DNA from: Alphaproteobacteria bacterium
GTDB lineage: Bacteria; Pseudomonadota; Alphaproteobacteria; Rs-D84
Assembly: GCA_017392345.1 (NCBI GenBank)
Contig: JAFOVN010000030.1
Location: 1-51,618 of the forward strand
Length of the DNA stretch: 51,618 bases
Reading direction: 5' to 3'
Part shown: in pieces, positions 1-28,716 of the stretch
Layout: each line of letters opens with the position of its first letter
How positions within the stretch are numbered: the first letter of the stretch is position 1
Program-made: the position numbers and the translations under genes
The notes under the pieces: model-generated
Database searches by the model: none
What the model saw: the letters and a program-made list of their open reading frames with translations, nothing else
Told to the model about the DNA's origin: nothing

Positions 1-1
1 A

Positions 2-436
2 TATATCTGAAACACTTCCATTGGAATGATCATCTAAAGCTTTAATAGATAGTATCCTGACATTGGGATTGACGGCAGCAATTAAAGCTGCCATCCTTGT
101 CCCATGACCATTATCATCTGATGCACTGTCTCCTATTACAGAAGTCTCTTCTATAACATTATCATTAGCTGCGCCGGTATCTATCAAAGCAACATAAGCA
201 CTGTTTCCTTTAACGCTTAATTCATCCACTGTATTTTGTGTTGATTCTTGTGGTTCTTTATCGGATATTGAATCTGCTAAAGAGTCTGATTCTGATTCGT
301 TATCACAACCACTAAGTACTTCGTTTACCTCGATTATCTCTGACTTATCATAATAATATGTATAAGCCGAGCGAGTTTCCTCCTCACTTTCAAAGTGTGT
401 TAGATATACACCATTTAGCTCCGATATAAAGACCAG
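2..436 (-). CDS. Subtilisin-like (peptidase S8) serine protease. Fragment only: it runs off the window edge and has no start codon on its 5' side.
   Basis: Manual minus-strand translation gives ...FISELNGVYLTHFESEEETRSAYTYYYDKSEIIEVNEVL...NSAYVALIDTGAANDN...SDDNGHGTRMAALIAAVNPNVRILSIKALDDHSNG. This contains the catalytic Asp box (IDTG) and His box (GHGT) after a propeptide-like stretch. The frame is open from 436 to the edge, with an in-frame stop at 437-439. There is no ATG upstream of the Asp box. Confidence 0.6.
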   Translation of the reverse strand, partial: MVFISELNGVYLTHFESEEETRSAYTYYYDKSEIIEVNEVLSGCDNESESDSLADSISDKEPQESTQNTVDELSVKGNSAYVALIDTGAANDNVIEETSVIGDSASDDNGHGTRMAALIAAVNPNVRILSIKALDDHSNGSVSDI

Positions 437-708
437 CTATGGATCATCGCCTTGGTAGGCCGTTACCCCACCAACAAGCTAATCCAACGCGGGCACATCC
501 ATCACCGATAAATCTTTCCCGTTTCCGGCGTATGCGGTATTAGCGTTCGTTTCCAAACGTTATTCCCCAGTAATGGGCAGTTTCCCACGCGTTACTCACT
601 CGTGCGCCACTAGATCCACAAGGGCAAGCCCCTGTTTCACCCGTTCGACTTGCATGCCTAAGACCTGCCGCCAGCGTTCGTTCTGAGCCAGGATCAAACT
701 CTCAAGTT
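430..708 (-). rRNA. rrs: 16S rRNA, 5'-terminal fragment only (about 280 nt)
   Basis: The reverse complement reads AACTTGAGAGTTTGATCCTGGCTCAGAACGAACGCTGGCGGCAGG...GCAAGTCGAACGG...GAAAGATTTATCGGTGATGGATG...GGTAACGGCCTACCAAGGCGATGATCCATAGCTGGTCT. Similarity to the universal continuation (..GAGAGGATGA..) ends abruptly at about 430. Confidence 0.85.
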
Positions 709-1030
709 TTAAAAAACCTGTGGTTTAAGTCCTGTGCATATAAAACAAAGCTGACATAAATCAGTTCGTCTTTACATATATATTCGCAAGACAAGTTTTA
801 ACGAGGTCTACTTTGTAAACCTACTACCTGTCTAGGATATGCACATTGACTTAGTCAAAGTTTGGATATTTCCAAATTCAACTGTCTGCATATCTCTTCT
901 TGAACATGACAATGATTTTTCAATCATAATCATTTTGATGAGCTGCTTTTATTCACAATGTTGCGGAATTTCCGCGTTCCAGAGGTTAGTATTTCGCGTT
1001 CCTGAACACGCCCTAACTTAGAAAGCCCGC

Positions 1031-1380: not shown

Positions 1381-1447
1381 TTTTGCACAAAAACGCGGGG
1401 CACTTGCCCCGCGCACTAACCACTTACACTAACACTTACCACTATTC
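1381..1447 (-). terminator. Composite 3' module: stop codon, then a TAGTGG/TAAGTG/TTAGTG tract, then a GCGGGG-N6-CCCCGC hairpin, then a T-run
   Basis: Minus strand: GAA TAG TGGTAAGTGTTAGTGTAAGTGGTTAGTGCGCGGGGCAAGTGCCCCGCGTTTTTGTGCAAAA. The stop of the 1123-aa CDS is the first TAG of the tract. The module is nearly identical to 39850-39905. Confidence 0.7.
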
Positions 1448-4400
1448 TACACTTATTTCGATAAGGTCGCCGTATGTGCCGGCTTCGTCCGCACCGATAA
1501 AGCAATATATATGTTCACCAACATTCCGCATGAATTCTTCTTCATCCGCTGTAAACTGCTGACGATTGGCTTCACGGATATTGTTCCGTGTGGCAAAGAA
1601 TCCGGTTGTTCCAAGTGCCGTCGCCCCAAGCAAATCCATGCCCGCACGTCCCCACATACTCGATTTATCTTCTACTTTACAAACATTGTTGCGTGCCGTC
1701 TCTAACTGGCTCAGCCTTGTTGTAACATCTTTTTGCGTAATCGTATGACCACTGGCCACCCTTGATGTCTTACCCGTAATAAATTGTCCACCTGAATCTT
1801 TTCTAATGATTTCATTAGAAGTGGTCATAGTATGATCTTTCTGACAAGGTGTTGTATAACTTTCTGTGCCATTTGTACAATTAGAATTCGCTGCGGGAGT
1901 ATAACTATCATGAGGAGTTCCACTATCATCACAACAGGCATCATACCTAATAGAATTCCAATAATCTTTTTCGCTGTCTATCTTTATCGCACAGGTTTCA
2001 CGATTCTTGGTATTAGTATTCAACAACCCACCAAGACCTGTCTGACCTTGCAACAAATCCATTGCGGTGGCACCCAATGCGCCCGCGCCAATTGTTGCCG
2101 CGGCAACACCCCATTTTTGACCAGTGGTCAATTGCAACTGATTGATTCTGTCACTAGACGCAGTGTTGCAATCGAAACTACGGTCTATTTTACCTTCGGC
2201 GCGTGCCTTGCTGCACGCCACGCGATTCGCGATATCTTCCAAATCTTTTTGTGAAATCCAAGAACCACAGGTGAACACATCACCAACCGCAAAGTATGCC
2301 GTTGACCAGTTTTTATGGTTTGCGTTGTTTTGCAAGAACCGCTGGATATCCGGATCGTCAGATTGAATTGTCACACGTGCGCGACAGAACGAACCATACA
2401 GTTCATTACTCGCCACGAATTCATTTGCTTTCAAACCGTTCACACTGTAATTCTTTGGAACACGATTGTTCCGTAATTTAACCCACATATATGTACTGGA
2501 CAAATCGTTTTTACCCATGATACCACCATTGTTGGCATCGATACACATATGTTGTTCCGCCGTCAGTTTCGCGTTATACTTCGCCTGTGCTTCCAGTTCA
2601 AGGTCGGCCATCACTTCTTGGAACAATGTGTCAACTTCCATATTCAATTGGTATACATTTATCGATTCGTATTTTGCTTGATCATAAACACAACCATTAT
2701 CATCAACCGTATCACAATCATGCGGATTTATCGTATCGCATTCCTGACCATTTGGTGCCGTGGCGCTGGACGCGACACACCCTATCAAAACATCACTATC
2801 ATCGACTTTGCGCGCATTATAGCCAGAGCTAACAGCGCCAACCCATGCATCACGAACAGATTTGTTGTCACCCCAACCCGACACACCATCATCGGTATTG
2901 TTCACAACAGTTTGAATCTTTAAGTGCTCTTCACATTTTGGCGAATCCTTGACAACGTTCACACACAAACCGCGAACGATTGTAAAGTCAAGAACACCGC
3001 CAACCTTGTTCATGCTTTTTGCGAATTTTTCATCAATAGTATTTGTTGATGTATTGCTATTTGTTGACGTGTTGACACGACCAGACATACTGCCACCGGT
3101 TGAACCAGAACCAACATTACCACCAGAATCAATTTTACCATAAGTATCGGTCATAACATCCGTCCGGTTACGATAGCAATTTTTGAAATCCGAACCGCAC
3201 ATTGAACGAATACAACTGACAGCAGTGGTTTTGCATTCTTTTGCCATTTTTTCGATTGCCGCAGGACTATAATTTTCCCTTAACGCTTTATTCAAACGTG
3301 CAACCACACCAATCGGGTCCTTTCCCTTGCTTTTCTCAGGGAATACTATACCAAACGTATCTATATCGGCGTAACTATAATTATATCCAGATTGACTTGC
3401 CGATGCCGCCGCATACTGGCAATTTGCATCCGTATTCACAATTGCTTCGCATCCAAGTCTAATTTCGTTATAGGTTTTGGACGCGTTAATCGAGCATGTC
3501 GTTTGACCAGACGAAGTAGCAAGTCCGCCACTACTTGTGAAACAGATGTTTGTCGAACCAAAAACCTTTGAATAACATGCCGAACCAAGGCCACCGCCAC
3601 ATGAACGCATTGCGCACGATGTAATCACATCACTGCAAGTGTCCTTTGTTTGCTTATCAAACTTATCTAATGTTGATTGTAATTGATTGTCCACACGTGT
3701 CATGGTCGAAGATATTATATTTGCATAAATTTCGTCACGATTTTCTTCGTCCAATAATTGTTTGTTTGTTGGCATCGATTTCAAGACAGTAGCATAACAA
3801 TACCTATTCCCGGCAATGGTTTCGTAACACAAACCTTTGATATACTTTGAAACATCAGCTTTTGTACGTGCACTTGCCACCGCTTTCATTTGTTCTTCGG
3901 TGAGTTGACGTCCTTCTTTTATTGCATCAACAACGTCAGCCAACAATGTGTCGCTATTGGCAATGCATTTGTATGGGTTCGCGCCACACGCCGATAACAC
4001 ACACTGATCGGCAATTTTGTAACACGTAGAAACCGAATTTAATGCCGCCAACTGCTGCCCTTCGGTAATCATAACCCCAAGGCGGCTTTGCGATGTCGGG
4101 TCACGCGATGTATCCGTCAGGCCGAATAATTCCTTTATCCCGTCTTCTTGGCACCGCGCAAGTGTCGATTCGCAATAAATTTTTTGTTTCTTGAATTCAC
4201 TGTTCGTGGTGCAAAGTTCGAAATCTTCGCCACAGACATTATCTTTTTTCAGGCACGATGTGTAACGCTTTACACATGATGATGTGTCAAGGCGGTTGCT
4301 GATTGCGCCGGCATCAATGAATTGGCCAACAATACTGCCCGCCGATGGGTAAAGGGCGGAGTTCGTTACCGAAAGTTGTGTCAAATCACTTGTTCCAAAA

Positions 4401-4813
4401 AGGGTGTTTATGCCCGACGGTGAACACTGCAACAGGACACTGTTGCACTGGGGCTTTTTGGCATAGAATAATTCAGGGGTTGTACATTCTTCGAAATTGA
4501 AATCGCAAACATCGGACGCCTTGATACATTCAGTATAGCGTTCAACGCATTCGATATCGTCCATCAACACGGCCGTGTTCGTTGCCGTCGTTGTGGTCGC
4601 GGTCGTTGTCGCCGTGCCGGTCACCTTTAATGTCGGTAAACGACGCGCCGCCGCAAGGTTCGCCGCACCCGGAATACTGATTGTGGATATACGGCTTAGG
4701 TCATCGTTGCGACCGTTAGTCCTTTGTGTTTGGGCCTGTTTCAAAGCCGCAGACGCGGGCGCAACCACGCACAAAACCGGTAAAATTCCAATAATAGTAG
4801 TCAGAAATTTCAT
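1442..4813 (-). CDS. Large secreted cysteine-rich protein of unknown family (1123 aa), with two Gly/Ala-rich hydrophobic segments near the C-terminus
   Basis: Predicted Sec signal peptide MKFLTTIIGILPVLCVVAPASA/ALK, followed by a Thr/Ala-rich linker. Repeated Cys modules follow (CVERYTECIKASDVCDFNFEECTTPELF versus CVKRYTSCLKKDNVCGEDFELCTTNSEF), with dozens of Cys throughout. C-terminal hydrophobic segments are WGVAAATIGAGALGATAMDLL and WGRAGMDLLGATALGTTGFFAT. Upstream lie an extended -10 (TGaTATAAT, 4840-4848 on the minus strand) and an AGGGGA SD. Confidence 0.85.
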   Translation of the reverse strand: MKFLTTIIGILPVLCVVAPASAALKQAQTQRTNGRNDDLSRISTISIPGAANLAAARRLPTLKVTGTATTTATTTTATNTAVLMDDIECVERYTECIKASDVCDFNFEECTTPELFYAKKPQCNSVLLQCSPSGINTLFGTSDLTQLSVTNSALYPSAGSIVGQFIDAGAISNRLDTSSCVKRYTSCLKKDNVCGEDFELCTTNSEFKKQKIYCESTLARCQEDGIKELFGLTDTSRDPTSQSRLGVMITEGQQLAALNSVSTCYKIADQCVLSACGANPYKCIANSDTLLADVVDAIKEGRQLTEEQMKAVASARTKADVSKYIKGLCYETIAGNRYCYATVLKSMPTNKQLLDEENRDEIYANIISSTMTRVDNQLQSTLDKFDKQTKDTCSDVITSCAMRSCGGGLGSACYSKVFGSTNICFTSSGGLATSSGQTTCSINASKTYNEIRLGCEAIVNTDANCQYAAASASQSGYNYSYADIDTFGIVFPEKSKGKDPIGVVARLNKALRENYSPAAIEKMAKECKTTAVSCIRSMCGSDFKNCYRNRTDVMTDTYGKIDSGGNVGSGSTGGSMSGRVNTSTNSNTSTNTIDEKFAKSMNKVGGVLDFTIVRGLCVNVVKDSPKCEEHLKIQTVVNNTDDGVSGWGDNKSVRDAWVGAVSSGYNARKVDDSDVLIGCVASSATAPNGQECDTINPHDCDTVDDNGCVYDQAKYESINVYQLNMEVDTLFQEVMADLELEAQAKYNAKLTAEQHMCIDANNGGIMGKNDLSSTYMWVKLRNNRVPKNYSVNGLKANEFVASNELYGSFCRARVTIQSDDPDIQRFLQNNANHKNWSTAYFAVGDVFTCGSWISQKDLEDIANRVACSKARAEGKIDRSFDCNTASSDRINQLQLTTGQKWGVAAATIGAGALGATAMDLLQGQTGLGGLLNTNTKNRETCAIKIDSEKDYWNSIRYDACCDDSGTPHDSYTPAANSNCTNGTESYTTPCQKDHTMTTSNEIIRKDSGGQFITGKTSRVASGHTITQKDVTTRLSQLETARNNVCKVEDKSSMWGRAGMDLLGATALGTTGFFATRNNIREANRQQFTADEEEFMRNVGEHIYCFIGADEAGTYGDLIEISVE

Positions 4814-5997: not shown

Positions 5998-6477
5998 TTA
6001 CTTGTACTCCCGCCATTCGGGGCCACGAACGCACTTTGAAAAATCGATATCCAATTCGCGGTCGCCGGTCACGGGACATTTTAGCAAACCGGTACTTTGT
6101 GCCTGGTCCGCGTCACGGGTGGCGTATCGCCATGTGAAACTTATTTCCGTGGGCGCATGCACACACACCAATCGCAATGTCCCGGTTGATTGCTTATTTG
6201 GTCCAAGCCAGATGCGAACACTGTCCGCTTCGCCATAACAAGGGAAAGCATCAAGGTAATACAAAACCATGCCACGTTCAACATCAGAATTTTTCCAAGT
6301 GAATTTTCCAACATATTGGCGCAGTGGCAACCCGGTCAACGCCGCCCAATCGGTTGTAGTTGAAAAAATACTTACACGCTGGATGTTTGGTGTTGGTGGT
6401 GTTTGTGGTGTGTCGGTTGCAATCGCGTTAAACGACAGAACACCAATAAAAACGCAAAATAAAAATTTCTTTATCAT
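5998..6477 (-). CDS. Small secreted protein of unknown function (159 aa)
   Basis: Signal peptide MIKKFLFCVFIGVLSFNAIA/TD. There is a 4-nt ATGA overlap with the upstream zinc-ribbon gene, and the stop lies 2 nt before the rluD start. Confidence 0.6.
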   Translation of the reverse strand: MIKKFLFCVFIGVLSFNAIATDTPQTPPTPNIQRVSIFSTTTDWAALTGLPLRQYVGKFTWKNSDVERGMVLYYLDAFPCYGEADSVRIWLGPNKQSTGTLRLVCVHAPTEISFTWRYATRDADQAQSTGLLKCPVTGDRELDIDFSKCVRGPEWREYK

Positions 6478-6986
6478 TTTTTATCTCCTATATTCATCAA
6501 TTCAACGCCAACGCGCCGAACCCCAGAAACATCCCCCGAAAGTTTATGTGTGAACCCGACCGTTTGACCAACATCCAAAAACGTTGCCGACGGCATAAAC
6601 CGTTGACGCCCGATTATGGAACCATCTTCACCATAAAGGACGATTGCCAAGTCGGGAAACGCATATATATCATCCGAACGATTTGTCACCGTTCCGCGCA
6701 CCACCATTTGTTCCACACCATTTGTCGTCACCGTTTGAATATCATCAACAACCGCAACAAGTGGTTTATTATTCGAATCATCGCGGCGCGATGTAATGAT
6801 AACCGCAACCGCAAACACCGTTGCCGCAAGCAATGCGCAAAGCGACGCAAAAAACACCATCAATCCGGAACGATTTTTTTTCACCTTTACCGTCCATGTA
6901 TGCCCACATATTGCACAGCGCACATCGCCCGATGTCTTGGTTGGTAAGTTATATTCAGTTTTACAAACATCACATTTTATTTTCAT
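6474..6986 (-). CDS. MJ0042-type zinc-ribbon membrane protein (DUF3426-like C-terminal domain)
   Basis: N-terminus MKIKCDVCKTEYNLP...VRCAICGHTW (two CxxC pairs), followed by one TM helix (LMVFFASLCALLAATVFAVAVII) and a periplasmic beta-rich domain. Confidence 0.65.
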   Translation of the reverse strand: MKIKCDVCKTEYNLPTKTSGDVRCAICGHTWTVKVKKNRSGLMVFFASLCALLAATVFAVAVIITSRRDDSNNKPLVAVVDDIQTVTTNGVEQMVVRGTVTNRSDDIYAFPDLAIVLYGEDGSIIGRQRFMPSATFLDVGQTVGFTHKLSGDVSGVRRVGVELMNIGDKK

Positions 6987-7017: not shown

Positions 7018-8343
7018 TTATTCCAATTTCAACAGTCGATATTTCCCACGCACACTTTTTTCTATTTCAATTATCGCATTCATAAAATCACCCATAGTTG
7101 CGTTTTTGTTCGACACAACCGAACTAAATATCTGGGTTGCGGTTGACCCAGAAACAGATTCGCGACGCAAAATATTTGTCGCCATATCCGAAAGTGTTGG
7201 GGATTTTATATCACCAAGGTTTGCGACGCGGGTACTTACATTCCAATAGTATGCAGGATTCATCGAATCGACAATTTTTTCTTTGACCCCAAGACGCGGT
7301 GTTATTGAACCGGTAAAACCAACCGTCACAAACATCGCACTTATTCGACCTTCGGTCATATCAAGTGAACCGCCAATTCGTATTGTTGACAATGACCCCG
7401 ACGGCACGGAAAATCCGCCAAGGGTTAAATTTGTCACAGACAAACTGTCCGCCGTAAACGAAGATAATTTTGCAAAGTCCGCGACACTAAACGGCCCGTT
7501 TACCGTTATACTTTTTGAATCCCCCGAAAACGTTCCGGACACCAGTGCGGTTTGCGTGTTATATGTGGAATCTATGGTTGTTCTGTTTTTGAATATAACA
7601 TCGGTAGATGTCAATTTTCCGATTTCCAAAGATTCCTCTAATGATAAACTATCGGCATTTACAAATCCCGCATTATTTATATCGCGATTGCCAAGGTTCA
7701 AAATAGATGCCATTGTTGCATCAGACGCACTGGCCGACGGGACACGCCATAAATACATTGCGTTATCACGTGTTATCCCCGTTGTTTGAACAATACCCGA
7801 TGCACCACCAACGCCCAAATCAACCGTATCGGCGCGCCATGTCCCAAAACCACCGTATGCGCGTGTGCCTTCGATGAATCCGATTTTATCGTCACCCATT
7901 TTAACAATTTCACGTGTGCGCATGGCGTTTATTTCTGGGTCGTTAAACACAATCACACCTTGCAATGTTGATTGATCCCCAACATCAATTGATTTTAGTA
8001 TGCGTAATTGATATTTGTCCGCCATATCTTTTGCAAAATTTTCATCAAGCCCATACGGGATTAAATCGGTCAATTTTATTTTTATGATATTGCGCCCCGT
8101 GGTTTTTAACATTTCTTCACGATTTTGCACAATATAGTGTTCCAAAATTGTCTGAATTTTTTGCATTTGACGCGTGACACGCAAACTTTCCGCGCGCGCA
8201 ATTGCACGCGTTTGATAACGGTATATAAACGGAATCAATGTCCCCGCAAGTGCGATAGTTAACAAAAATTCTATCAACACCGTTCCACGGGATGCATTGG
8301 ATACAGAAAAAATCAAATTTCTTTTTTTCATTGCATTTTCCAA
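7018..8343 (-). CDS. Large pilin-like protein, paralogue 3 (441 aa): prepilin-type N-terminus plus a beta-rich domain
   Basis: N-terminus ..SNASRG/TVLIEFLLTIALAGTLIPF, with Gly at -1, Glu at +5 and Pro-Phe at +18/+19. The mature part is Ser/Thr/Gly/Asn-rich and carries the motif LNLGNRDINNAGF. It overlaps the end of paralogue 2. Confidence 0.7.
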   Translation of the reverse strand: MENAMKKRNLIFSVSNASRGTVLIEFLLTIALAGTLIPFIYRYQTRAIARAESLRVTRQMQKIQTILEHYIVQNREEMLKTTGRNIIKIKLTDLIPYGLDENFAKDMADKYQLRILKSIDVGDQSTLQGVIVFNDPEINAMRTREIVKMGDDKIGFIEGTRAYGGFGTWRADTVDLGVGGASGIVQTTGITRDNAMYLWRVPSASASDATMASILNLGNRDINNAGFVNADSLSLEESLEIGKLTSTDVIFKNRTTIDSTYNTQTALVSGTFSGDSKSITVNGPFSVADFAKLSSFTADSLSVTNLTLGGFSVPSGSLSTIRIGGSLDMTEGRISAMFVTVGFTGSITPRLGVKEKIVDSMNPAYYWNVSTRVANLGDIKSPTLSDMATNILRRESVSGSTATQIFSSVVSNKNATMGDFMNAIIEIEKSVRGKYRLLKLE

Positions 8344-9512
8344 CCACTTTTCATCAACGGTTCAAATTCTTTCCTGTCCGGAATTTTCGGAATCGGCGAC
8401 CGCGCCAATGTCAAAGACGCAAACGATGGCGGTGTTTTTGACGGGAAAGACCAATTGCCTAATTTTATCGGTGCATTTGATGATAACAGCAATTCACCGG
8501 ACACCGTCAATCCAAAATTTCCCGCAAATGTCAATTCGCCCGCCGACAGATATGGTGCATACACCGTACCCGTCGTCATTCCGGCAAAACCACTTATTGT
8601 TTTCAAACTTGTGGATTTAAGGATAAATTCGTTCCCTATATTTATTGAATTATTTACTGTTGCACGGTCGGCGATTATACGCGCATTCAAATCGATTCCA
8701 TTTCCACTCAATTTTTTCGCGGTGATATTTCTAAAACCGCTAAGGTCGCCGGTAACACGAATTGTTCCGATTGTTGTACTGTCGCCGTTCATGTTCGCGC
8801 CCGATGAAAAATAAACATTTTTTGTATTGACTGATTCGGCAACAACAAATGTCGCATTAAGGTTGCGGACACGCAAGAATTTTCCATTTATTCCACCAAC
8901 ATTACGAATGTCGTGATTTCCCATATTCAAATCGCGCTGCATAGTATTTAATTCTGCATCACCCGAAGAACCACGATGTAAAAAACGCGTTGTATCAAAA
9001 TCGGTTTGGTTGCGTGTTATTCTATAAATTAAATTTCCGGGTAAAAATTCGGGTGCGGTGACCGCCCAGGTATCACCATACGCGACACCGTCCGCGCCAA
9101 CAACCGCCGCGTCCGCACCGACATTTGCCGCAATTCGCGCAATGCGTTTTGCCGTTGTATCTAAATTAAACGCAAGGTAAACATCGACCACCGTTCCGCC
9201 ATTGACATTATATTTATCAATAAATCCCGCAGAAAGCGATTCAGAAATCGCCGCACGTTCATCATCGGTCATTTTAATCTGTGCTTCGGCCGGCCAAAGG
9301 TCTTGGTTCAATCGAACAAAGTTCAACATTGTTTCACGCAAACTTATTATATCATTTGCAACCGCCATATCGTGTATTGTATGCGTTGTATCGGCAATCA
9401 TAGAAAATGTGAACGGGGCGGCAACAGCAATAATAACCATGGCAAGCAAGACCTCGACCAGGCCGCCACCGCGTTGTGCTATGACCTCTGATTTTTTTAG
9501 TATCTTAGTCAC
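8328..9512 (-). CDS. Large pilin-like protein, paralogue 2 (394 aa)
   Basis: N-terminus ..IAQRG/GGLVEVLLAMVIIAVAAPF (Glu +5, Pro-Phe +18/+19). Motif LNMGNHDIRNVGG, with a periodic beta-helix-like sequence downstream. It overlaps paralogue 1 by 8 nt. Confidence 0.7.
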   Translation of the reverse strand: MTKILKKSEVIAQRGGGLVEVLLAMVIIAVAAPFTFSMIADTTHTIHDMAVANDIISLRETMLNFVRLNQDLWPAEAQIKMTDDERAAISESLSAGFIDKYNVNGGTVVDVYLAFNLDTTAKRIARIAANVGADAAVVGADGVAYGDTWAVTAPEFLPGNLIYRITRNQTDFDTTRFLHRGSSGDAELNTMQRDLNMGNHDIRNVGGINGKFLRVRNLNATFVVAESVNTKNVYFSSGANMNGDSTTIGTIRVTGDLSGFRNITAKKLSGNGIDLNARIIADRATVNNSINIGNEFILKSTSLKTISGFAGMTTGTVYAPYLSAGELTFAGNFGLTVSGELLLSSNAPIKLGNWSFPSKTPPSFASLTLARSPIPKIPDRKEFEPLMKSGWKMQ

Positions 9513-10875
9513 AACTTGTTCCCCCCCTGATTAAACATTGTTTTACATCTATACGTTTTTCAAGCCGTTGCCAATAAACATACTGACATATTATATATTG
9601 TGCCAAAGATTTTGCGTTATATGAATTTCCCATTCCTGATATAATAGAACTGCAATTCACCACCGCATCATTATCTTCGGTTGGATTGGCCAATATGCCG
9701 AACGCGCCATTATCAATTGTATCAACCAACGCGTCTGGCAAAATCGATGTGCCCGATGGCCGTATATCCAAAAGTGTTGCGCCACCACTGTCGCCCCGCG
9801 TGAGTGCCCCCGATGTTTGTTCACGCAATGTTATATTGCCGGCATAAACACTGTTGGCATCAATTCCACTGGCACTGCTGTATGTAAGTGTTGTCGAATC
9901 AATGAACACATCTTGCCCACGCGTAAGGTTTACAAAAGACCCCACATCCAATCTTTCAACATTAAATGTTATTCGACTTGCAACCAGGTTTCCACCAACC
10001 GACCATTTTGTTGGCCCCGTAAACCCGGTGCGCCCCGCCGACATATCAAAACTTACCACATCGGCATCGGTAACCGTCACATTGCTTGCATCGCCAAATT
10101 TTGCAACGGTGCGCGCGACCATTGAACCAACCTTTAATGTGCCACGTGTCAACGAAAGTGCCGATTCGCCACCCACCGATTGAAAAACCGTTTTGTTTGT
10201 CGTTAGTGATTTTATATTGCTGCGCTCTTTACGGCCGGCCTCGGTCCCGCTTATGGTTAGCGTCACCGATTCGCCACCATCAAATTTTGCACGTCGCGCA
10301 AATATGTTTGCAATGTTGTTTATATTAAAATTATCCATATCTAAATCGGTCAAAAATCCCGAATAAGAAAAATTTCCATCGTTTCGGCGAACAACATCCG
10401 AATACATTTCGCCAAGATGAATTCCAACGTCAATGTTTCCGGTTGTATCTTCGGGATCAAACATCGCATAAAAACCGATTCGTCGCGCAAGTTCCGCGCG
10501 TTGCATGGTGTTTAGATTTCCACCACTGACGCGAATAAAGGCCGAAACTTCTTGGGTATCTTTGTTGATAATCAAACTTATATCTTGGCCAAATGCGGTT
10601 CGTGTTATAAACCCAATCGGCAACCCATATGGTTCCAGCAAATCAGATAAATTGTCGCCCGATATTTTTGTTTGATCATACGATAAATTTGAAACATTTT
10701 CTTGGATATAAATTTTAGCTGCGGTTCGAATTGTGTCGATTTGACGTGTGGCGGAATACATTTGCGCGTTTATATCACGGGTCGCAATCCGGTGCGCCAA
10801 AAACGGCATAAACACGAATACCAATGTCAACGCAAGCAACGCTTGGATTAAAAAACTTCCGCGTTCAGACGACAT
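9505..10875 (-). CDS. Large pilin-like protein, paralogue 1 (about 456 aa), with Gln instead of Glu at +5
   Basis: MSSERG/SFLIQALLALTLVFVFMPF (Pro-Phe +18/+19). I chose the start at 10875 because AGGAGGG lies 3 nt upstream of that ATG; the ORF track starts at 10899. Motif LDMDNFNINNIANI. Confidence 0.7.
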   Translation of the reverse strand: MSSERGSFLIQALLALTLVFVFMPFLAHRIATRDINAQMYSATRQIDTIRTAAKIYIQENVSNLSYDQTKISGDNLSDLLEPYGLPIGFITRTAFGQDISLIINKDTQEVSAFIRVSGGNLNTMQRAELARRIGFYAMFDPEDTTGNIDVGIHLGEMYSDVVRRNDGNFSYSGFLTDLDMDNFNINNIANIFARRAKFDGGESVTLTISGTEAGRKERSNIKSLTTNKTVFQSVGGESALSLTRGTLKVGSMVARTVAKFGDASNVTVTDADVVSFDMSAGRTGFTGPTKWSVGGNLVASRITFNVERLDVGSFVNLTRGQDVFIDSTTLTYSSASGIDANSVYAGNITLREQTSGALTRGDSGGATLLDIRPSGTSILPDALVDTIDNGAFGILANPTEDNDAVVNCSSIISGMGNSYNAKSLAQYIICQYVYWQRLEKRIDVKQCLIRGGTSCD

Positions 10876-10960
10876 AAACCCTCCTGATACGATAAGCATA
10901 GCAACAGAAAAAATTTATTGCAATTGGTTTTAAGATGTTTTAACATTGTCATTGGTTTAA

Positions 10961-11018: not shown

Positions 11019-11396
11019 ATGCAACCAAGAAAAAATCAAACGAATTCACGTGGGCAATCGTCCAACAATTCACGAAATCAATCGCCGGTTATTGCGATGA
11101 TTCAACGGTGTCACAAATGGCGCATGAAACGCAAACAGTATATGGACCAGGCGCGTCTTGCAACCGATGAAATCGAACGCGAACGGTTGTTGCAATCGGC
11201 GGAACATTACGGCCGTATTGTCAACGAAGAACAGGCCAAGATTGATTCTTCGCGTACACCGGGCGACAAAACACCGATTCCGGACGTTCCGGTGGCGGCT
11301 GAAAACGGAACACAATCCGACAATCCTGAAAATCCGGAAAACACCGATACGGACGAAGAACAGGTTTTTCCAACCTTTTTGACAAGTTTGAATTAG
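11019..11396 (+). CDS. DUF4167-like protein (conserved in alphaproteobacteria)
   Basis: Basic Asn/Ser/Gln/Arg-rich N-terminus, then ..YMDQARLATDEIERERLLQSAEHYGRIV.., then an acidic tail. This is the pattern I recall for DUF4167. Confidence 0.55.
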   Translation: MQPRKNQTNSRGQSSNNSRNQSPVIAMIQRCHKWRMKRKQYMDQARLATDEIERERLLQSAEHYGRIVNEEQAKIDSSRTPGDKTPIPDVPVAAENGTQSDNPENPENTDTDEEQVFPTFLTSLN

Positions 11397-20496: not shown

Positions 20497-22740
20497 ATGG
20501 TTCAAAAGTTCAAGATTTTATCTGCGGGCAAAGACAGCAAGGGTTTGAATATATTCAAATCATCTGCGTATAAAGAACACGAACAAACCCCCATGGCCCA
20601 GGTTTTTTGGGCGCTGCGTTGGTCGGTTGGCGTGTGGTTGGTATGCGCGTTGGTGTTTTGCTTTTCGTTTTTGTTCGAACATTTGTGGCGATATGGTTGG
20701 TCACCGGCAACCGCAAATTGGATGAAAATCTATTTAATCAATATGGTTCAAAGCGCGGGCCTGTCGGTCATCGCGGAAATTCCGTATTGGGTTTTGCGCT
20801 GTTTGATGCACCCGGATTTTATGTGTATTGTGCCACTGATTCCGGTGTTGGCGTATTACCTGTTGGTGGATGACACATTAAAGGGTGAATTTAACCCGCA
20901 CGGCAAGGATAAATTTGATAAAAAATCTTCACGCGAAGCGAACGAGGCGGATGTAAAGGCAATGGGGCTGTTCGACGGGTTTATGATGGTACTTGGGTAT
21001 TTCAAAAAGAAACCGTTAAAATTACCAAAAACATTGTCGGTTTTATGTCTTGCCCCCCCGGGAACCGGTAAAACCCAAGGCATAGTATTGCCAACAATTT
21101 TTGAATGTGATAAGGTATCAATGATTATAAACGACCCCAAACCCGAATTGGATTCAAAGTCCAGTGGTTATCGTTCAACAATTGGACCGGTGTTCATTAT
21201 GGATTGGGGCGGCCAAGATGAACCGGAAAAGGGTATTTATTATCCGTCTTGGAATCCGCTTTCGCCGGGGCACATACCGTTTAGTACCGAACAACGCGAA
21301 TTGTATGTCGATTATATTTGCGACGTGTTGGTTCCCGATGCCACGGGCAGCAGTGCCGACCCACACTGGACCCAATCGGGGCGCGCGGGGCTTGCCGGGT
21401 TTATTCAGTTTATAGTTTCAAAAATTGAACGCGCCAAGGCGGACGATTATTTCTATGGCAGACTTCAATCCGGAACATTTGATGCCGAAGATGCCGCCGT
21501 TTTGTCCGATTATTACTTTTCAATGGTAAATGACCCAAATGCCTTTGCCGCACAGGGGCTTATTAAAAACGGCGAATTAAACGCGATGAATTATGTTCAT
21601 ATTGGTTCGTGGGCAAACATACCGCAAATGTGGCTTGGCAAAGAGGCATCGTTTTCCATGATGCTGGATTGGATTACGGAGGCGCAGATTGCCGTCGCCG
21701 CGAATTTGGCGGAACGCCAAAAGCAAGGCGACCAAACCGTTATGATGGCGGACCCAATGAAAGATTGGTTGGAATCCGCGGTTGCCGAATGTCGCGCGTT
21801 TGCATATTCAAATCGTGCGGTTGCGGAACTTACAAAATTGGCCAACACACCGGCAACCGAACGCGGGTCAATTCTTTCAACAATTCTGACGGGACTTGCG
21901 ATTTTCCGTAATGCCGCCGTGCGTAATCGAACATCACATTCCGACTTTCATTTTGCCGATATGCGCGGAATGATTGACCCACGCGACGGAAAAATGAAGC
22001 CGGTGACGGTTTACCTGTCCATCAATATGGTTGATGCCAAGGCGTTAAACCCAATTACCGCGATGTTTATTGAAACGATGTCGAATTTCTTGCTTGCCAA
22101 TCCGCCGGAACACGTGGGGCGCAGTGGCGAAAAAATGGGCCCGTATCCGGTGTTATTCTTGCTTGATGAAATGCCGAAAATGCAAAAGATGCAGGCGGTT
22201 ATCCAAGGGCCCGATGTTGGTCGTGGTCAACAAATATCATATCTGTTTATTGGCCAGGATTTACACCAAATTGCCGAAAAATATGGTGCAGATGCCGCCG
22301 CGACAATTATATCAACAACCGCGGCCAAGGTTGTGTTGCGACAAAATGACCCGGATACCGCAAAACGTTTTTCGGAAATGATGGGAACAAAAATAACAAT
22401 GAAAAAAGAAAAAGGTCCCGACGGCAAAGAGGTGGAAGTTCCAAAAACAGAACCATTATTTAGTGAATATGACATTATGAAATTGAAAGACGCCAAGGGC
22501 GAAAAACCTGGTGAAGAACTTATTATTTATGAAGGTTGGTATCATCGTCCTATCAAAGGCGAATTGCGAATGGCCTTTGCCGATCCAAGGTTAGCGCCAC
22601 TAATAAAAATGGGACGGTCGTCGCCGTTGCCAGAGTTCCTTATACCGATGCATCATGCGATTTTGGAATACAATGGAAATCCGCGCTATTACAATCCGCA
22701 AACAAATGAATTGAAAGAATTGTCGCCTGTGGTAAAATAA
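20497..22740 (+). CDS. Type IV secretion/conjugation coupling protein, VirD4/TraG family
   Basis: N-terminal TM helices, Walker A in LCLAPPGTGKTQGIVLPTI followed by NDPKPEL, Walker B in VLFLLDEMPKM, and the downstream motif GQDLHQIAEKYG. Confidence 0.8.
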   Translation: MVQKFKILSAGKDSKGLNIFKSSAYKEHEQTPMAQVFWALRWSVGVWLVCALVFCFSFLFEHLWRYGWSPATANWMKIYLINMVQSAGLSVIAEIPYWVLRCLMHPDFMCIVPLIPVLAYYLLVDDTLKGEFNPHGKDKFDKKSSREANEADVKAMGLFDGFMMVLGYFKKKPLKLPKTLSVLCLAPPGTGKTQGIVLPTIFECDKVSMIINDPKPELDSKSSGYRSTIGPVFIMDWGGQDEPEKGIYYPSWNPLSPGHIPFSTEQRELYVDYICDVLVPDATGSSADPHWTQSGRAGLAGFIQFIVSKIERAKADDYFYGRLQSGTFDAEDAAVLSDYYFSMVNDPNAFAAQGLIKNGELNAMNYVHIGSWANIPQMWLGKEASFSMMLDWITEAQIAVAANLAERQKQGDQTVMMADPMKDWLESAVAECRAFAYSNRAVAELTKLANTPATERGSILSTILTGLAIFRNAAVRNRTSHSDFHFADMRGMIDPRDGKMKPVTVYLSINMVDAKALNPITAMFIETMSNFLLANPPEHVGRSGEKMGPYPVLFLLDEMPKMQKMQAVIQGPDVGRGQQISYLFIGQDLHQIAEKYGADAAATIISTTAAKVVLRQNDPDTAKRFSEMMGTKITMKKEKGPDGKEVEVPKTEPLFSEYDIMKLKDAKGEKPGEELIIYEGWYHRPIKGELRMAFADPRLAPLIKMGRSSPLPEFLIPMHHAILEYNGNPRYYNPQTNELKELSPVVK

Positions 22741-27581: not shown

Positions 27582-28259
27582 TTATCGAACGGGAGATATT
27601 CTTAATTCCACACGACGATTGGTAAGCCGACCCCATTCATCTTGGGCCGCAATTGGGCGCGCCGCACCGCGTCCGACAATAAACATACGCGATGTTTTTA
27701 TTCCATGTTGCCCTAAGAAAACACCAACGCGTTCCGCCATATCCAAAGAAAACGCACGCGCCGCATTTGTGTCGCGCATCGAATCGGTGTACCCCGCAAT
27801 TTCAATAAATGTTGCGTCGTATTTTTTTAGTATTCGCGCAATCGTTGATAAATTATCATCACCGTCCGCCGATATTTCCGGCGCATTTAATTCCATAATT
27901 GCGTCACGAACCAAGATAACAAGGACATCCGTACCGGCGCGTTGAACCGATAACCCCGGGCGACGCAACGCGTCATAAAGCGCGGTTTCCAATTCCGACA
28001 TATAACCAATACACATCGCCGATTCGTTTTGTGTTTTATCGCCATATTCCATTTCCGCCGATTGCGCGACAACTTCCGCCACCGTTTTTCCGCCCGCACC
28101 TTGGTAAATAGGTTTCTTGGCGGTGCGCGCACTTTCGGTCATATCGGTAAAACTTGCACCACGCAAATAATTGCCCCACGTGGAACGGTCAGGACTTTTG
28201 TATGCCGCACATCCTGTAATCAAAATGAACGATAAAATTGCGGTGCAAAACTTTTGCAT
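27582..28259 (-). CDS. OmpA/MotB-domain lipoprotein
   Basis: Lipobox LITGC when the start is MQKFCTAIL (28259). The C-terminus ..IAGYTDSMRDTNAARAFSLDMAERV...RRVELRI matches the OmpA_C peptidoglycan-binding domain. Confidence 0.75.
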   Translation of the reverse strand: MQKFCTAILSFILITGCAAYKSPDRSTWGNYLRGASFTDMTESARTAKKPIYQGAGGKTVAEVVAQSAEMEYGDKTQNESAMCIGYMSELETALYDALRRPGLSVQRAGTDVLVILVRDAIMELNAPEISADGDDNLSTIARILKKYDATFIEIAGYTDSMRDTNAARAFSLDMAERVGVFLGQHGIKTSRMFIVGRGAARPIAAQDEWGRLTNRRVELRISPVR

Positions 28260-28260
28260 A

Positions 28261-28716
28261 TTACATTCCTGTGAATGATAAATTATTTTCATTTCCCGGA
28301 AAACAATTTACAATTTCTTCGGCACGATATCCGTTTATATAAAATTCCGTTGCCCATGTCGGTATCGCCGCGCCAAAGAATTCGCATTCGCTGCGCGATA
28401 GGCCATAAAGGTTTATTACAAATGTTGTTCGGTCGATTCCAACACCAATATCCCATGATTTGCCAATCGGTGCATCCGGTTTTTGTAGCGCACCGGCCTT
28501 TACCAAATAGTCAACCGATATTCCGGTATAATCACTGCGCATACCCATAAGCATATTTATATCTTTGGCCACTTCGCGCAATGTTGCGGCGGCGATAGTA
28601 TTTTGCTGGTTCCGGCGCACAGAATTATAAATCGCAACCGCACCCGCCGTCATAACCGCGGTCACCGCCAACACACCAATAATTTCAATAAGTGAACGCC
28701 CTGATTCGTTTTTCAT
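28261..28716 (-). CDS. Type IV pilin/pseudopilin-like protein (151 aa)
   Basis: MKNESG/RSLIEIIGVLAVTAVMTAGAVAIY has a short basic leader, Gly at -1, Glu at +5 and a hydrophobic helix. The size is typical of a major pilin. A GGAGGGG SD sits in the 17-nt gap after dnaX. Confidence 0.7.
   Translation of the reverse strand: MKNESGRSLIEIIGVLAVTAVMTAGAVAIYNSVRRNQQNTIAAATLREVAKDINMLMGMRSDYTGISVDYLVKAGALQKPDAPIGKSWDIGVGIDRTTFVINLYGLSRSECEFFGAAIPTWATEFYINGYRAEEIVNCFPGNENNLSFTGM

Follow-up and report, generated by a model that had tools for sequence, protein, structure and literature searches.

Contig JAFOVN010000030.1 of the genome assembly GCA_017392345.1 (Alphaproteobacteria bacterium, order Rs-D84), a stretch of 51,618 nt referred to throughout as the window, carries three consecutive genes for large pilin-like proteins, here named A, B and C. 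By profile comparison, the trio is remotely homologous to the PilV constant region (Shufflon_N) and does not represent a wholly new kind of protein. PilV, a minor pilin of about 450 aa, is the tip adhesin of type IVb conjugative pili, in which it selects the partner cell (PMC9045228). We favour, with modest confidence, an interpretation in which A, B and C would make up a heterotrimeric tip and priming complex of a type IVb-like filament, with a shaft of a 151 aa pilin that is likewise encoded in the window, and in which their C-terminal parts would act as adhesins. In plain terms, a thin surface fibre would probably carry the trio as an adhesive cap in three parts, with which this partner-dependent bacterium would be likely to hold on to other cells.

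Organization and conservation of the A-B-C genes

Gene A (9505..10875, reverse strand) codes for a 456 aa PilV-like minor pilin with the N-terminus MSSERG/SFLIQ, a six-residue leader and Gln at mature position +5. Its open reading frame (ORF) spans 9505-10899, and the start was placed at the ATG at 10875 because a Shine-Dalgarno sequence, AGGAGG (10885-10880), lies just ahead of it and because the resulting 456 aa agree with the length of the homologues. Gene B (8328..9512, reverse strand) has a GTG start and codes for a PilV-like minor pilin of 394 aa (QRG/GGLVE, Glu5). The product of gene C (7018..8331, reverse strand; ORF 7018-8343) is the member of the trio closest to PilV (SRG/TVLIE, Glu5), its start at 8331 being chosen from the homologue length of 437 aa. 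A and B overlap by 8 nt, and B and C by the sequence ATGA, overlaps of a kind typical of translational coupling. On BLASTP comparison the three are real but distant paralogues (B-C: e-value 1e-8, 24% identity over 353 aa; A-C: 2e-9; A-B: 7e-4), in line with an earlier note, made from the letters of the window alone, which had described three consecutive, overlapping genes for paralogues of 394-456 aa. A promoter scan returned no more sites than were obtained with shuffled sequence.

The host of the window is a member of Candidatus Enterousia (order Rs-D84); its closest genome records are rumen and gut metagenome-assembled genomes (MAGs) labelled Candidatus Enterousia or 'Alphaproteobacteria bacterium'. 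Relatives of C occur in 224 stretches in a scan of one genome per GTDB species, and an exhaustive profile search gave a family of 1268 cluster representatives at E <= 1e-3 (423 at E <= 1e-10), while 831 and 1085 homologues were found for A and B, respectively. The best 150 representatives could each be assigned to an A, B or C orthogroup, and the separate subfamily of pilin-like proteins that had been proposed for the trio is supported, as one with three branches. The genes of the cluster carry neither annotation nor precomputed Pfam domains.

Synteny was counted over the ORFs of 84 sources, namely 83 related loci and the window. The order A-B-C is kept in 83 of these, the single exception being a truncated locus, and the called ORFs overlap at almost every junction of the trio. 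Seven more distant representatives were also inspected, five of which (L087, L091, L092, L094 and L095) come from lineages with a different gene neighbourhood and contain the same A-B-C trio, again among housekeeping genes. Every locus places the trio in a chromosomal housekeeping context, and no case of trio loss or extra duplication was observed among the complete loci examined. The triplet is an ancient one whose members are always found together, and this arrangement is the new element. One locus with an Enterousia-type trio and synteny (L053; CAVGNU010000002.1) is deposited as 'Bacteroides fragilis isolate ... cleanbin', yet is evidently a mislabelled or mis-binned MAG.

Homology to the PilV constant region

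The Shufflon_N domain (PF04917), which corresponds to the PilV constant region, was detected by Pfam scan in seven of 94 family representatives. It scores 44 bits (E 2.8e-11) in the C-type protein P0422 and 29.5 bits in the A-type protein P0450, both above the gathering cut-off of 27.5, and reaches 26.6 bits in the A-type protein of L087, which in turn aligns with the window A family at an hhalign probability of 97%. The window proteins A, B and C themselves have no Shufflon_N match at E <= 1. A 451 aa PilV from a Serratia plasmid, annotated as 'shufflon system ... pilus tip adhesin' and located in a complete type IVb pil operon, served as the reference for direct comparison. Against this protein, hhalign gave a probability of 94.7% for the C family (E 5.6e-8; 221 columns), 73.8% for the B family (E 2.9e-5) and 10.7% for the A family. 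Judged on these alignments, homology to PilV is recognizable for C, borderline for B and, for A, only transitive through the L087 protein and P0450. When PilV was used as the phmmer query, P0422 scored 50 bits, and a number of the closest C-family homologues scored 30-37 bits. A sequence search of the PDB with PilV retrieved no solved relative.

PilV furthermore carries the motif of the trio, LNRMHTAIDMNNNNLNNVATVNA, followed by Asn/Gly/Thr-rich repeats. The motif is conserved across the A, B and C families as L-(N/D)-(M/L)-G-x-x-(D/N)-I-x-N (LNMGNHDIRNVGG in the window) and, from its occurrence in both groups of proteins, is a feature of the PilV family. The earlier note had rightly seen it as common to all three proteins, and had likened it to phage tail-fibre-like proteins. 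That likeness, together with a non-significant scatter of tail-fibre models in BFVD, is all that speaks for an origin of the trio as phage tail-fibre derivatives or a prophage remnant, an explanation to which we attach practically no weight. In BFVD no match reaches E <= 0.001 and no TM-score exceeds 0.16; PHROGs returned no family for A or C, and for B only families of unknown function at E 0.06-0.09, none being found at E <= 0.05. The motif is located in the PilV constant region, and the genes have housekeeping neighbours and stable synteny in the 84 loci. A phage tail-fibre identity of the trio and its motif was accordingly rejected.

The overall layout of the proteins also resembles that of PilV, which likewise combines a class III signal with Gly -1 and Glu5, an N-terminal pilin domain, the motif in the form L-N-x-M...(I/L)(D/N)M-x-N-x-(L/I)-x-N-V and Asn/Gly/Thr-rich beta repeats, in 451 aa as compared with 394-456 aa in the trio. 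The named PilV systems are the type IVb thin pilus of the IncI1/IncI2 plasmids (R64, TP114) and that of PAPI-1. In contrast to the single gene of these systems, the trio consists of three fixed paralogues, one of which lacks Glu5, and it has no shufflon segments, sfx repeats or Rci recombinase, no plasmid location and no adjacent pilL-pilU machinery, while its C-terminal parts are conserved where those of PilV are variable. The strongly reduced genome of the host sets the trio apart from PilV as well. Only 31 nt with short, imperfect repeats separate C from the next gene in the window, and no recombinase gene occurs in the cluster in any of the 84 loci. The presence of a shufflon at the trio was rejected on these grounds. 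In no locus does the trio belong to a pil operon of the type IVb kind (pilL-pilV) carried by a conjugative plasmid or an integrative and conjugative element.

The size of the proteins, which had at first been taken as gigantic for pilins, loses its oddity in this company, as the PilV used here has 451 aa and CofB-type minor pilins are also large (PMC6048534). Since the motif is found in PilV and the size of the trio is normal for such proteins, the fibre would not be of the wholly undescribed kind that had been envisaged. It had also been considered that the proteins might fall into a characterized family with its normal machinery nearby. The family has been found, remotely, in PilV/Shufflon_N; the machinery, the plasmid context and the shufflon have not.

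Prepilin signal and mature N-termini

The N-termini of the window proteins, SRG/TVLIEF in C, QRG/GGLVEV in B and ERG/SFLIQA in A, all show the class III layout, in which a short, basic leader with Gly as its last residue precedes a hydrophobic helix some 20 residues long; this layout is shared with the 151 aa pilin and is modified in A by Gln at +5. A pattern search that demanded Gly at -1 and Glu or Gln at +5 was fitted by 438 of 510 collected family sequences. Among these 438, position +5 is Gln in 140/142 A-type proteins and Glu in 141/141 B-type and 154/155 C-type proteins, position -2 is mostly Arg, and Pro-Phe occupies positions +18/+19 in most. Gly -1 is moreover invariant in alignments of 67 and 94 sequences, independent of the pattern search. 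The median leader length is six residues in A, about 20 in B and about 16 in C. The class III N-termini, the shared Pro-Phe and the substitution of Gln for Glu in one member, all of which the earlier note had read from the window alone, are thus properties of the family at large, and the conserved Gln5 fits a tip subunit.

Across this number of sequences the signal pattern is far beyond chance. The invariance of Gly -1, together with the retention of Glu5 in B and C and of Gln5 in A, points to selection for cleavage and filament packing; we infer that such a pattern makes sense only if a prepilin peptidase cleaves the proteins and their N-terminal helices pack in a filament. Scores against the general models of this signal stay below threshold. 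B reaches 14.3 bits with PF07963 (N_methyl; cut-off 21.2) and 13.8 bits with TIGR02532 (cut-off 16.3), the 151 aa pilin reaches 15.3 bits without attaining the cut-off, and A and C have no match to either model. Of the 11 PDB matches obtained with a diverse C-type profile, about eight are pilins (best E 0.0011), which align mainly through their mature N-termini and in register: profile position 16-17 falls on mature residue 2 of the PDB pilins, in agreement with the predicted cleavage site. The PDB searches with the B- and C-family profiles yielded no more than weak matches to pilin N-termini.

C-terminal halves and predicted structure

The C-terminal halves of the trio are rich in Ser, Thr, Gly and Asn, as noted before, these residues making up 37-38% of their length as compared with 24 +/- 2% in the housekeeping proteins of the window. 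In A, B and C alike, they are conserved to the same degree as the N-terminal halves, and A has four invariant C-terminal Cys residues (408, 430, 447 and 455). AlphaFold2 modelling of C with a diverse alignment of 55 sequences (mean predicted local distance difference test score, pLDDT, 76.7) places residues 14-69 in a helix and those that follow, up to about 183, in an alpha/beta domain (pLDDT 80-90); after these it predicts a linker of low confidence bearing the motif (191-210), a domain of long beta-hairpins (241-371; pLDDT ~70) and a three-helix C-terminal bundle (378-433; pLDDT ~90). The B model, for which 31 close homologues were used, has a long helix followed by a beta-sheet (pLDDT 70-88) and a C-terminal half with a pLDDT of about 30. 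Weak prediction of the monomer is common for subunits that fold only in oligomers, and would be compatible with a trimeric fibre without proving one. The N-terminal parts of both models have the layout of a pilin fold, in which an extended helix packs on an antiparallel beta-sheet (pLDDT 70-90), although Foldseek with the whole models gave no significant pilin match.

In four loci (L084-L086 and L088) the C paralogue has 577-653 aa and is 150-200 residues longer, and A is also longer (531 aa). The extra C-terminal sequence of these long C paralogues has no Pfam match. The additional length suggests a lineage-specific elaboration of the presumed adhesin modules in some Rs-D84 lineages.

A candidate shaft subunit and a linked ZitP-like protein

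A 151 aa type IV pilin (28261..28716, reverse strand; MKNESG/RSLIE) is the candidate major, or shaft, subunit. Its orthologues, in an alignment of 28, have G/RSLIE or G/ASMIE at the signal and two invariant Cys residues. A PDB profile search retrieved pilins only, namely geopilin (E 0.0015), TcpA (E 0.0025; residues 8-122) and CofA (E 0.06), and the protein is, by this weak resemblance to TcpA, closest to the type IVb major pilins. Its identity as a pilin, which the earlier note had proposed along with a role as shaft, is supported by signal and profile matches, and its gene is syntenic with the trio in most relatives. The pilin gene is followed by a gene for a 236 aa OmpA-C-domain lipoprotein (27582..28292, reverse strand; Pfam OmpA, E 1.5e-12; lipobox LITGC) that overlaps its end, and the two are always found together between dnaX and skp. 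In 57 of the 84 sources the dnaX-pilin-OmpA-skp block is found no more than 10 kb from the trio, usually adjoining and divergent; in the window it has moved 17 kb away. A pilin is here paired with a lipoprotein of the peptidoglycan-binding type.

Directly downstream of the trio, in 84/84 loci, lies a gene for a ZitP-like protein (6474..6986, reverse strand; 170 aa) with a CxxC-x15-CxxC zinc ribbon, one transmembrane helix and a periplasmic DUF3426/FxLYD-like domain. It scores above the cut-offs of TIGR02098 (23.3 bits; cut-off 20.9) and FxLYD (23.1; cut-off 23) and just below those of Zn_ribbon_4 (28.2; cut-off 30.3) and DUF3426 (23.3; cut-off 27.7). Its best PDB matches are AgmX and 2nb9, a 49 aa chain deposited as 'Uncharacterized protein' (E 0.006), which we take to be the zinc finger of Caulobacter ZitP. 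With ZitP it shares the N-terminal CxxC...CxxC zinc ribbon, the single transmembrane helix and the periplasmic DUF3426-like domain, which in Caulobacter ZitP is needed for pilus biogenesis (PMC5182063). It differs in its length of 170 aa as compared with 311 aa, in the sub-threshold DUF3426 score and in its setting, as Caulobacter ZitP acts on the Tad/Cpa (type IVc) pilus via CpaM, of which no homologue was seen here. In the proposed apparatus, the ZitP-like protein would probably set the machine at the cell pole.

The proposed tip complex and its alternatives

In the mechanism that we propose, each protein of the trio would enter the inner membrane and lose its leader through cleavage behind the invariant Gly, the prepilin peptidase responsible being encoded at another site of the genome. 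The N-terminal helices of A, B and C would then pack as a 1:1:1 heterotrimeric cap with A (Gln5) on top, which would first prime and later tip a thin filament of the 151 aa pilin, while the beta-rich C-terminal halves of about 250 residues would lie exposed at the end of the fibre and serve as adhesins in the contact with partner or host cells. Such a cap is proposed by analogy with the CofB/PilV tips and with GspI-J-K, and the features that point to it, indirectly, are the fixed stoichiometry and gene order, the overlap of the genes, the Glu5/Gln5 asymmetry and the equal conservation along the length of the proteins.

The tip of the type II secretion system is a heterotrimer of GspI, GspJ and GspK, in which the top subunit GspK lacks Glu5. 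The trio resembles this arrangement in that three different minor (pseudo)pilins stand side by side and the presumed top subunit is without Glu5, and differs from it in the lack of detectable homology and in the small size of GspI and GspJ. The likeness would also accommodate a trio of minor pseudopilins in a short periplasmic pseudopilus, serving type II secretion or DNA uptake with no exposed pilus. Short leaders and a chromosomal housekeeping context are in keeping with this, as is the need of a partner-dependent bacterium to import many metabolites (PMC12306168). We nevertheless regard it as quite unlikely, given that the detectable homology is to PilV/Shufflon_N and that none of the models for GspH, GspI, GspJ and GspK matches the trio; that the 151 aa pilin is closest to type IVb major pilins; and that extensions of at least 250 residues on all three proteins would be atypical of pseudopilins.

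Returning to the type IVb-like tip, CofB is a trimeric initiator at the tip of the type IVb pilus and mediates adhesion (PMC6048534, PMC5207764). CofB and TcpB, of the CFA/III and TCP pili, are likewise large minor pilins with a pilin domain and beta-rich C-terminal domains, and the small pilin linked to the trio resembles TcpA and CofA. In contrast to these homotrimers of one gene, the trio would fill the three positions from three genes. Neither PDB profile searches nor Foldseek gave a sequence or fold match between CofB/TcpB and the trio.

The homotrimeric action of CofB (PMC6048534) suggests a different use of the three genes, in which A, B and C would be alternative tip adhesins, each a CofB-like homotrimer on a different filament, with three fixed specificities as a hard-wired counterpart of the shufflon. 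PilV variants do differ in recipient specificity (PMC9045228), and the three proteins have strongly diverged from each other in their C-terminal halves. However, the trio is not interchangeable, as in essentially all lineages only A lacks Glu5 and has the six-residue leader; the orthogroups are ancient and present as A-B-C in each complete locus without loss or extra duplication; and the overlapping, coupled genes suggest equimolar production. We consider alternative adhesins unlikely for these reasons.

Several observations weigh against the heterotrimeric tip complex that we favour. The heterotrimer itself is proposed by analogy, and the window proteins A, B and C reach no Pfam or NCBIfam cut-off. 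Foldseek searches with the AlphaFold2 models of B and C, a comparison which the earlier note had suggested, gave no significant match to pilins or to anything else; the best match, for whole-chain models, was to the XcpGHIJK pseudopilus model at a probability of 0.57, although such models, with a protruding helix of 55 residues, are probably poorly suited to Foldseek. The conserved C-terminal halves are unlike the variable receptor-binding end of PilV, and the adjacency of the ZitP-like gene may in part be inherited gene order, since a zinc-ribbon gene stands beside rluD, 3 kb off the trio, in one distant lineage. Furthermore, the sole published genome survey of Rs-D84 reports type IV pili for another lineage and none for Rs-D84 (PMC12306168).

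The assembly machinery is likewise missing from the surroundings of the trio. Just as had been noted, the 51 kb of the window have no domain of an extension ATPase, a platform protein, a secretin or a prepilin peptidase in Pfam scans of all sizeable ORFs. A regular expression for GspE/VirB11 Walker motifs, applied to all ORFs up to 10 kb from the trio in the window and the 83 loci, found no GspE-type motif. The contexts of the seven more distant representatives contain no machinery either, and the gene tables of the further lineages are without machinery Pfam domains. Ten gene clusters that lie near the trio in relatives and are absent from the window contain no machinery in Pfam scans and are housekeeping or of unknown function. 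The survey of homologues for co-occurring machinery that had been called for thus finds none near the trio in about 90 loci. As the minor-pilin operons of type IVa pili likewise sit apart from their machinery, an orphan trio is not odd in itself.

The same gap would be expected if the genomes had no assembly machinery and the trio were uncleaved bitopic inner-membrane proteins, pilin relics serving as periplasmic or envelope scaffolds, perhaps with the ZitP-like protein at the pole. The lack of machinery near the trio in about 90 loci, the survey that gives no type IV pili for the order (PMC12306168) and the tight linkage to a ZitP-like membrane protein are all consistent with this. Uncleaved anchors would, however, have no reason to keep Gly -1, Arg -2, Glu5 in two members and Gln5 in the third over hundreds of sequences, and another, small pilin that has this signal and a disulphide pair has been retained as well. 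We hold this explanation to be improbable.

Other genes of the window

Overlapping the ZitP-like gene by 4 nt is a gene for a secreted 159 aa protein (5998..6477, reverse strand) with a Sec signal peptide and no Pfam match, which is present in 83/84 loci; rluD comes next, so that the order downstream of the trio is zinc-ribbon protein, 159 aa protein and rluD. A secreted binding partner of the minor-pilin trimer, such as CofJ or TcpF, is often encoded in type IVb operons, and by analogy the 159 aa protein could be a binder of this type. The gene that follows rluD in 75/84 loci encodes a Cys-rich secreted protein, in the window of 1123 aa (1442-4813, reverse strand) and in relatives of 1060-1239 aa, which belongs to no Pfam family and has a hydrophobic segment near its C-terminus. 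This may be a surface protein tied to the function of the trio. ARAGORN calls an 89 nt tRNA-Ile within the same ORF (3090-3178, reverse strand), which is probably a false positive, as it is not confirmed by Rfam. On the other side, and divergent from the trio, lies a gene for a small DUF4167-like protein (11019-11396, forward strand; sub-threshold, E 0.004) that is found in 66/84 loci. The 5′ part of a 16S rRNA gene (1-709, reverse strand) ends at the edge of the window; its low score (159.8 bits over 554 model positions) suggests that it is divergent or interrupted.

A gene for a VirD4/TraG-type coupling protein of a type IV secretion system (T4SS) is located among housekeeping genes at 20497-22740 on the forward strand (T4SS-DNA_transf, E 8e-45). 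It is followed by a 405 aa lipoprotein-like ORF without a Pfam match and by a gene for an LpoB-family lipoprotein. A T4SS whose genes are scattered over less than 1 Mb of genome recalls the Rickettsiales, and PilV-type pili normally serve T4SS-mediated conjugation.

Implications for the biology of Rs-D84

Genomes of Enterousia are mostly smaller than 1 Mb and are without flagella, respiration and most biosynthesis (PMC12306168). Given this genome size and the loss of most biosynthetic pathways, the cells are thought to live off other cells, and the lineage has been proposed to be an obligate symbiont or parasite (PMC12306168). In a bolder extension, which we regard as doubtful, the trio, the 151 aa pilin and the OmpA lipoprotein would jointly make up an organelle by which an obligate episymbiont or parasite contacts its host. 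This would be a type IVb-like fibre tipped by a heterotrimer and placed at the pole via the ZitP-like protein. Its assembly machinery would perhaps be divergent beyond recognition or of no known kind, and it would perhaps work with the T4SS to which the VirD4 coupling protein of the window belongs, in the way that PilV pili stabilize mating pairs for conjugation.

The PilV/Shufflon_N family is extended by these genes from plasmids to chromosomal, shufflon-free loci, with more than 1200 cluster representatives. As a complex, the trio would be a natural heterotrimeric counterpart of the homotrimeric tip of the CofB/TcpB/PilV type, and the loss of Glu5 in one subunit would link the tip architecture of type IVb pili with the GspI-J-K logic of type II secretion. 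Rs-D84 is a widespread and uncultured lineage of the gut and rumen. The pilin-like cluster of about 4 kb, present in at least 224 species-level genomes, represents a concrete candidate for the apparatus of contact with partner cells.

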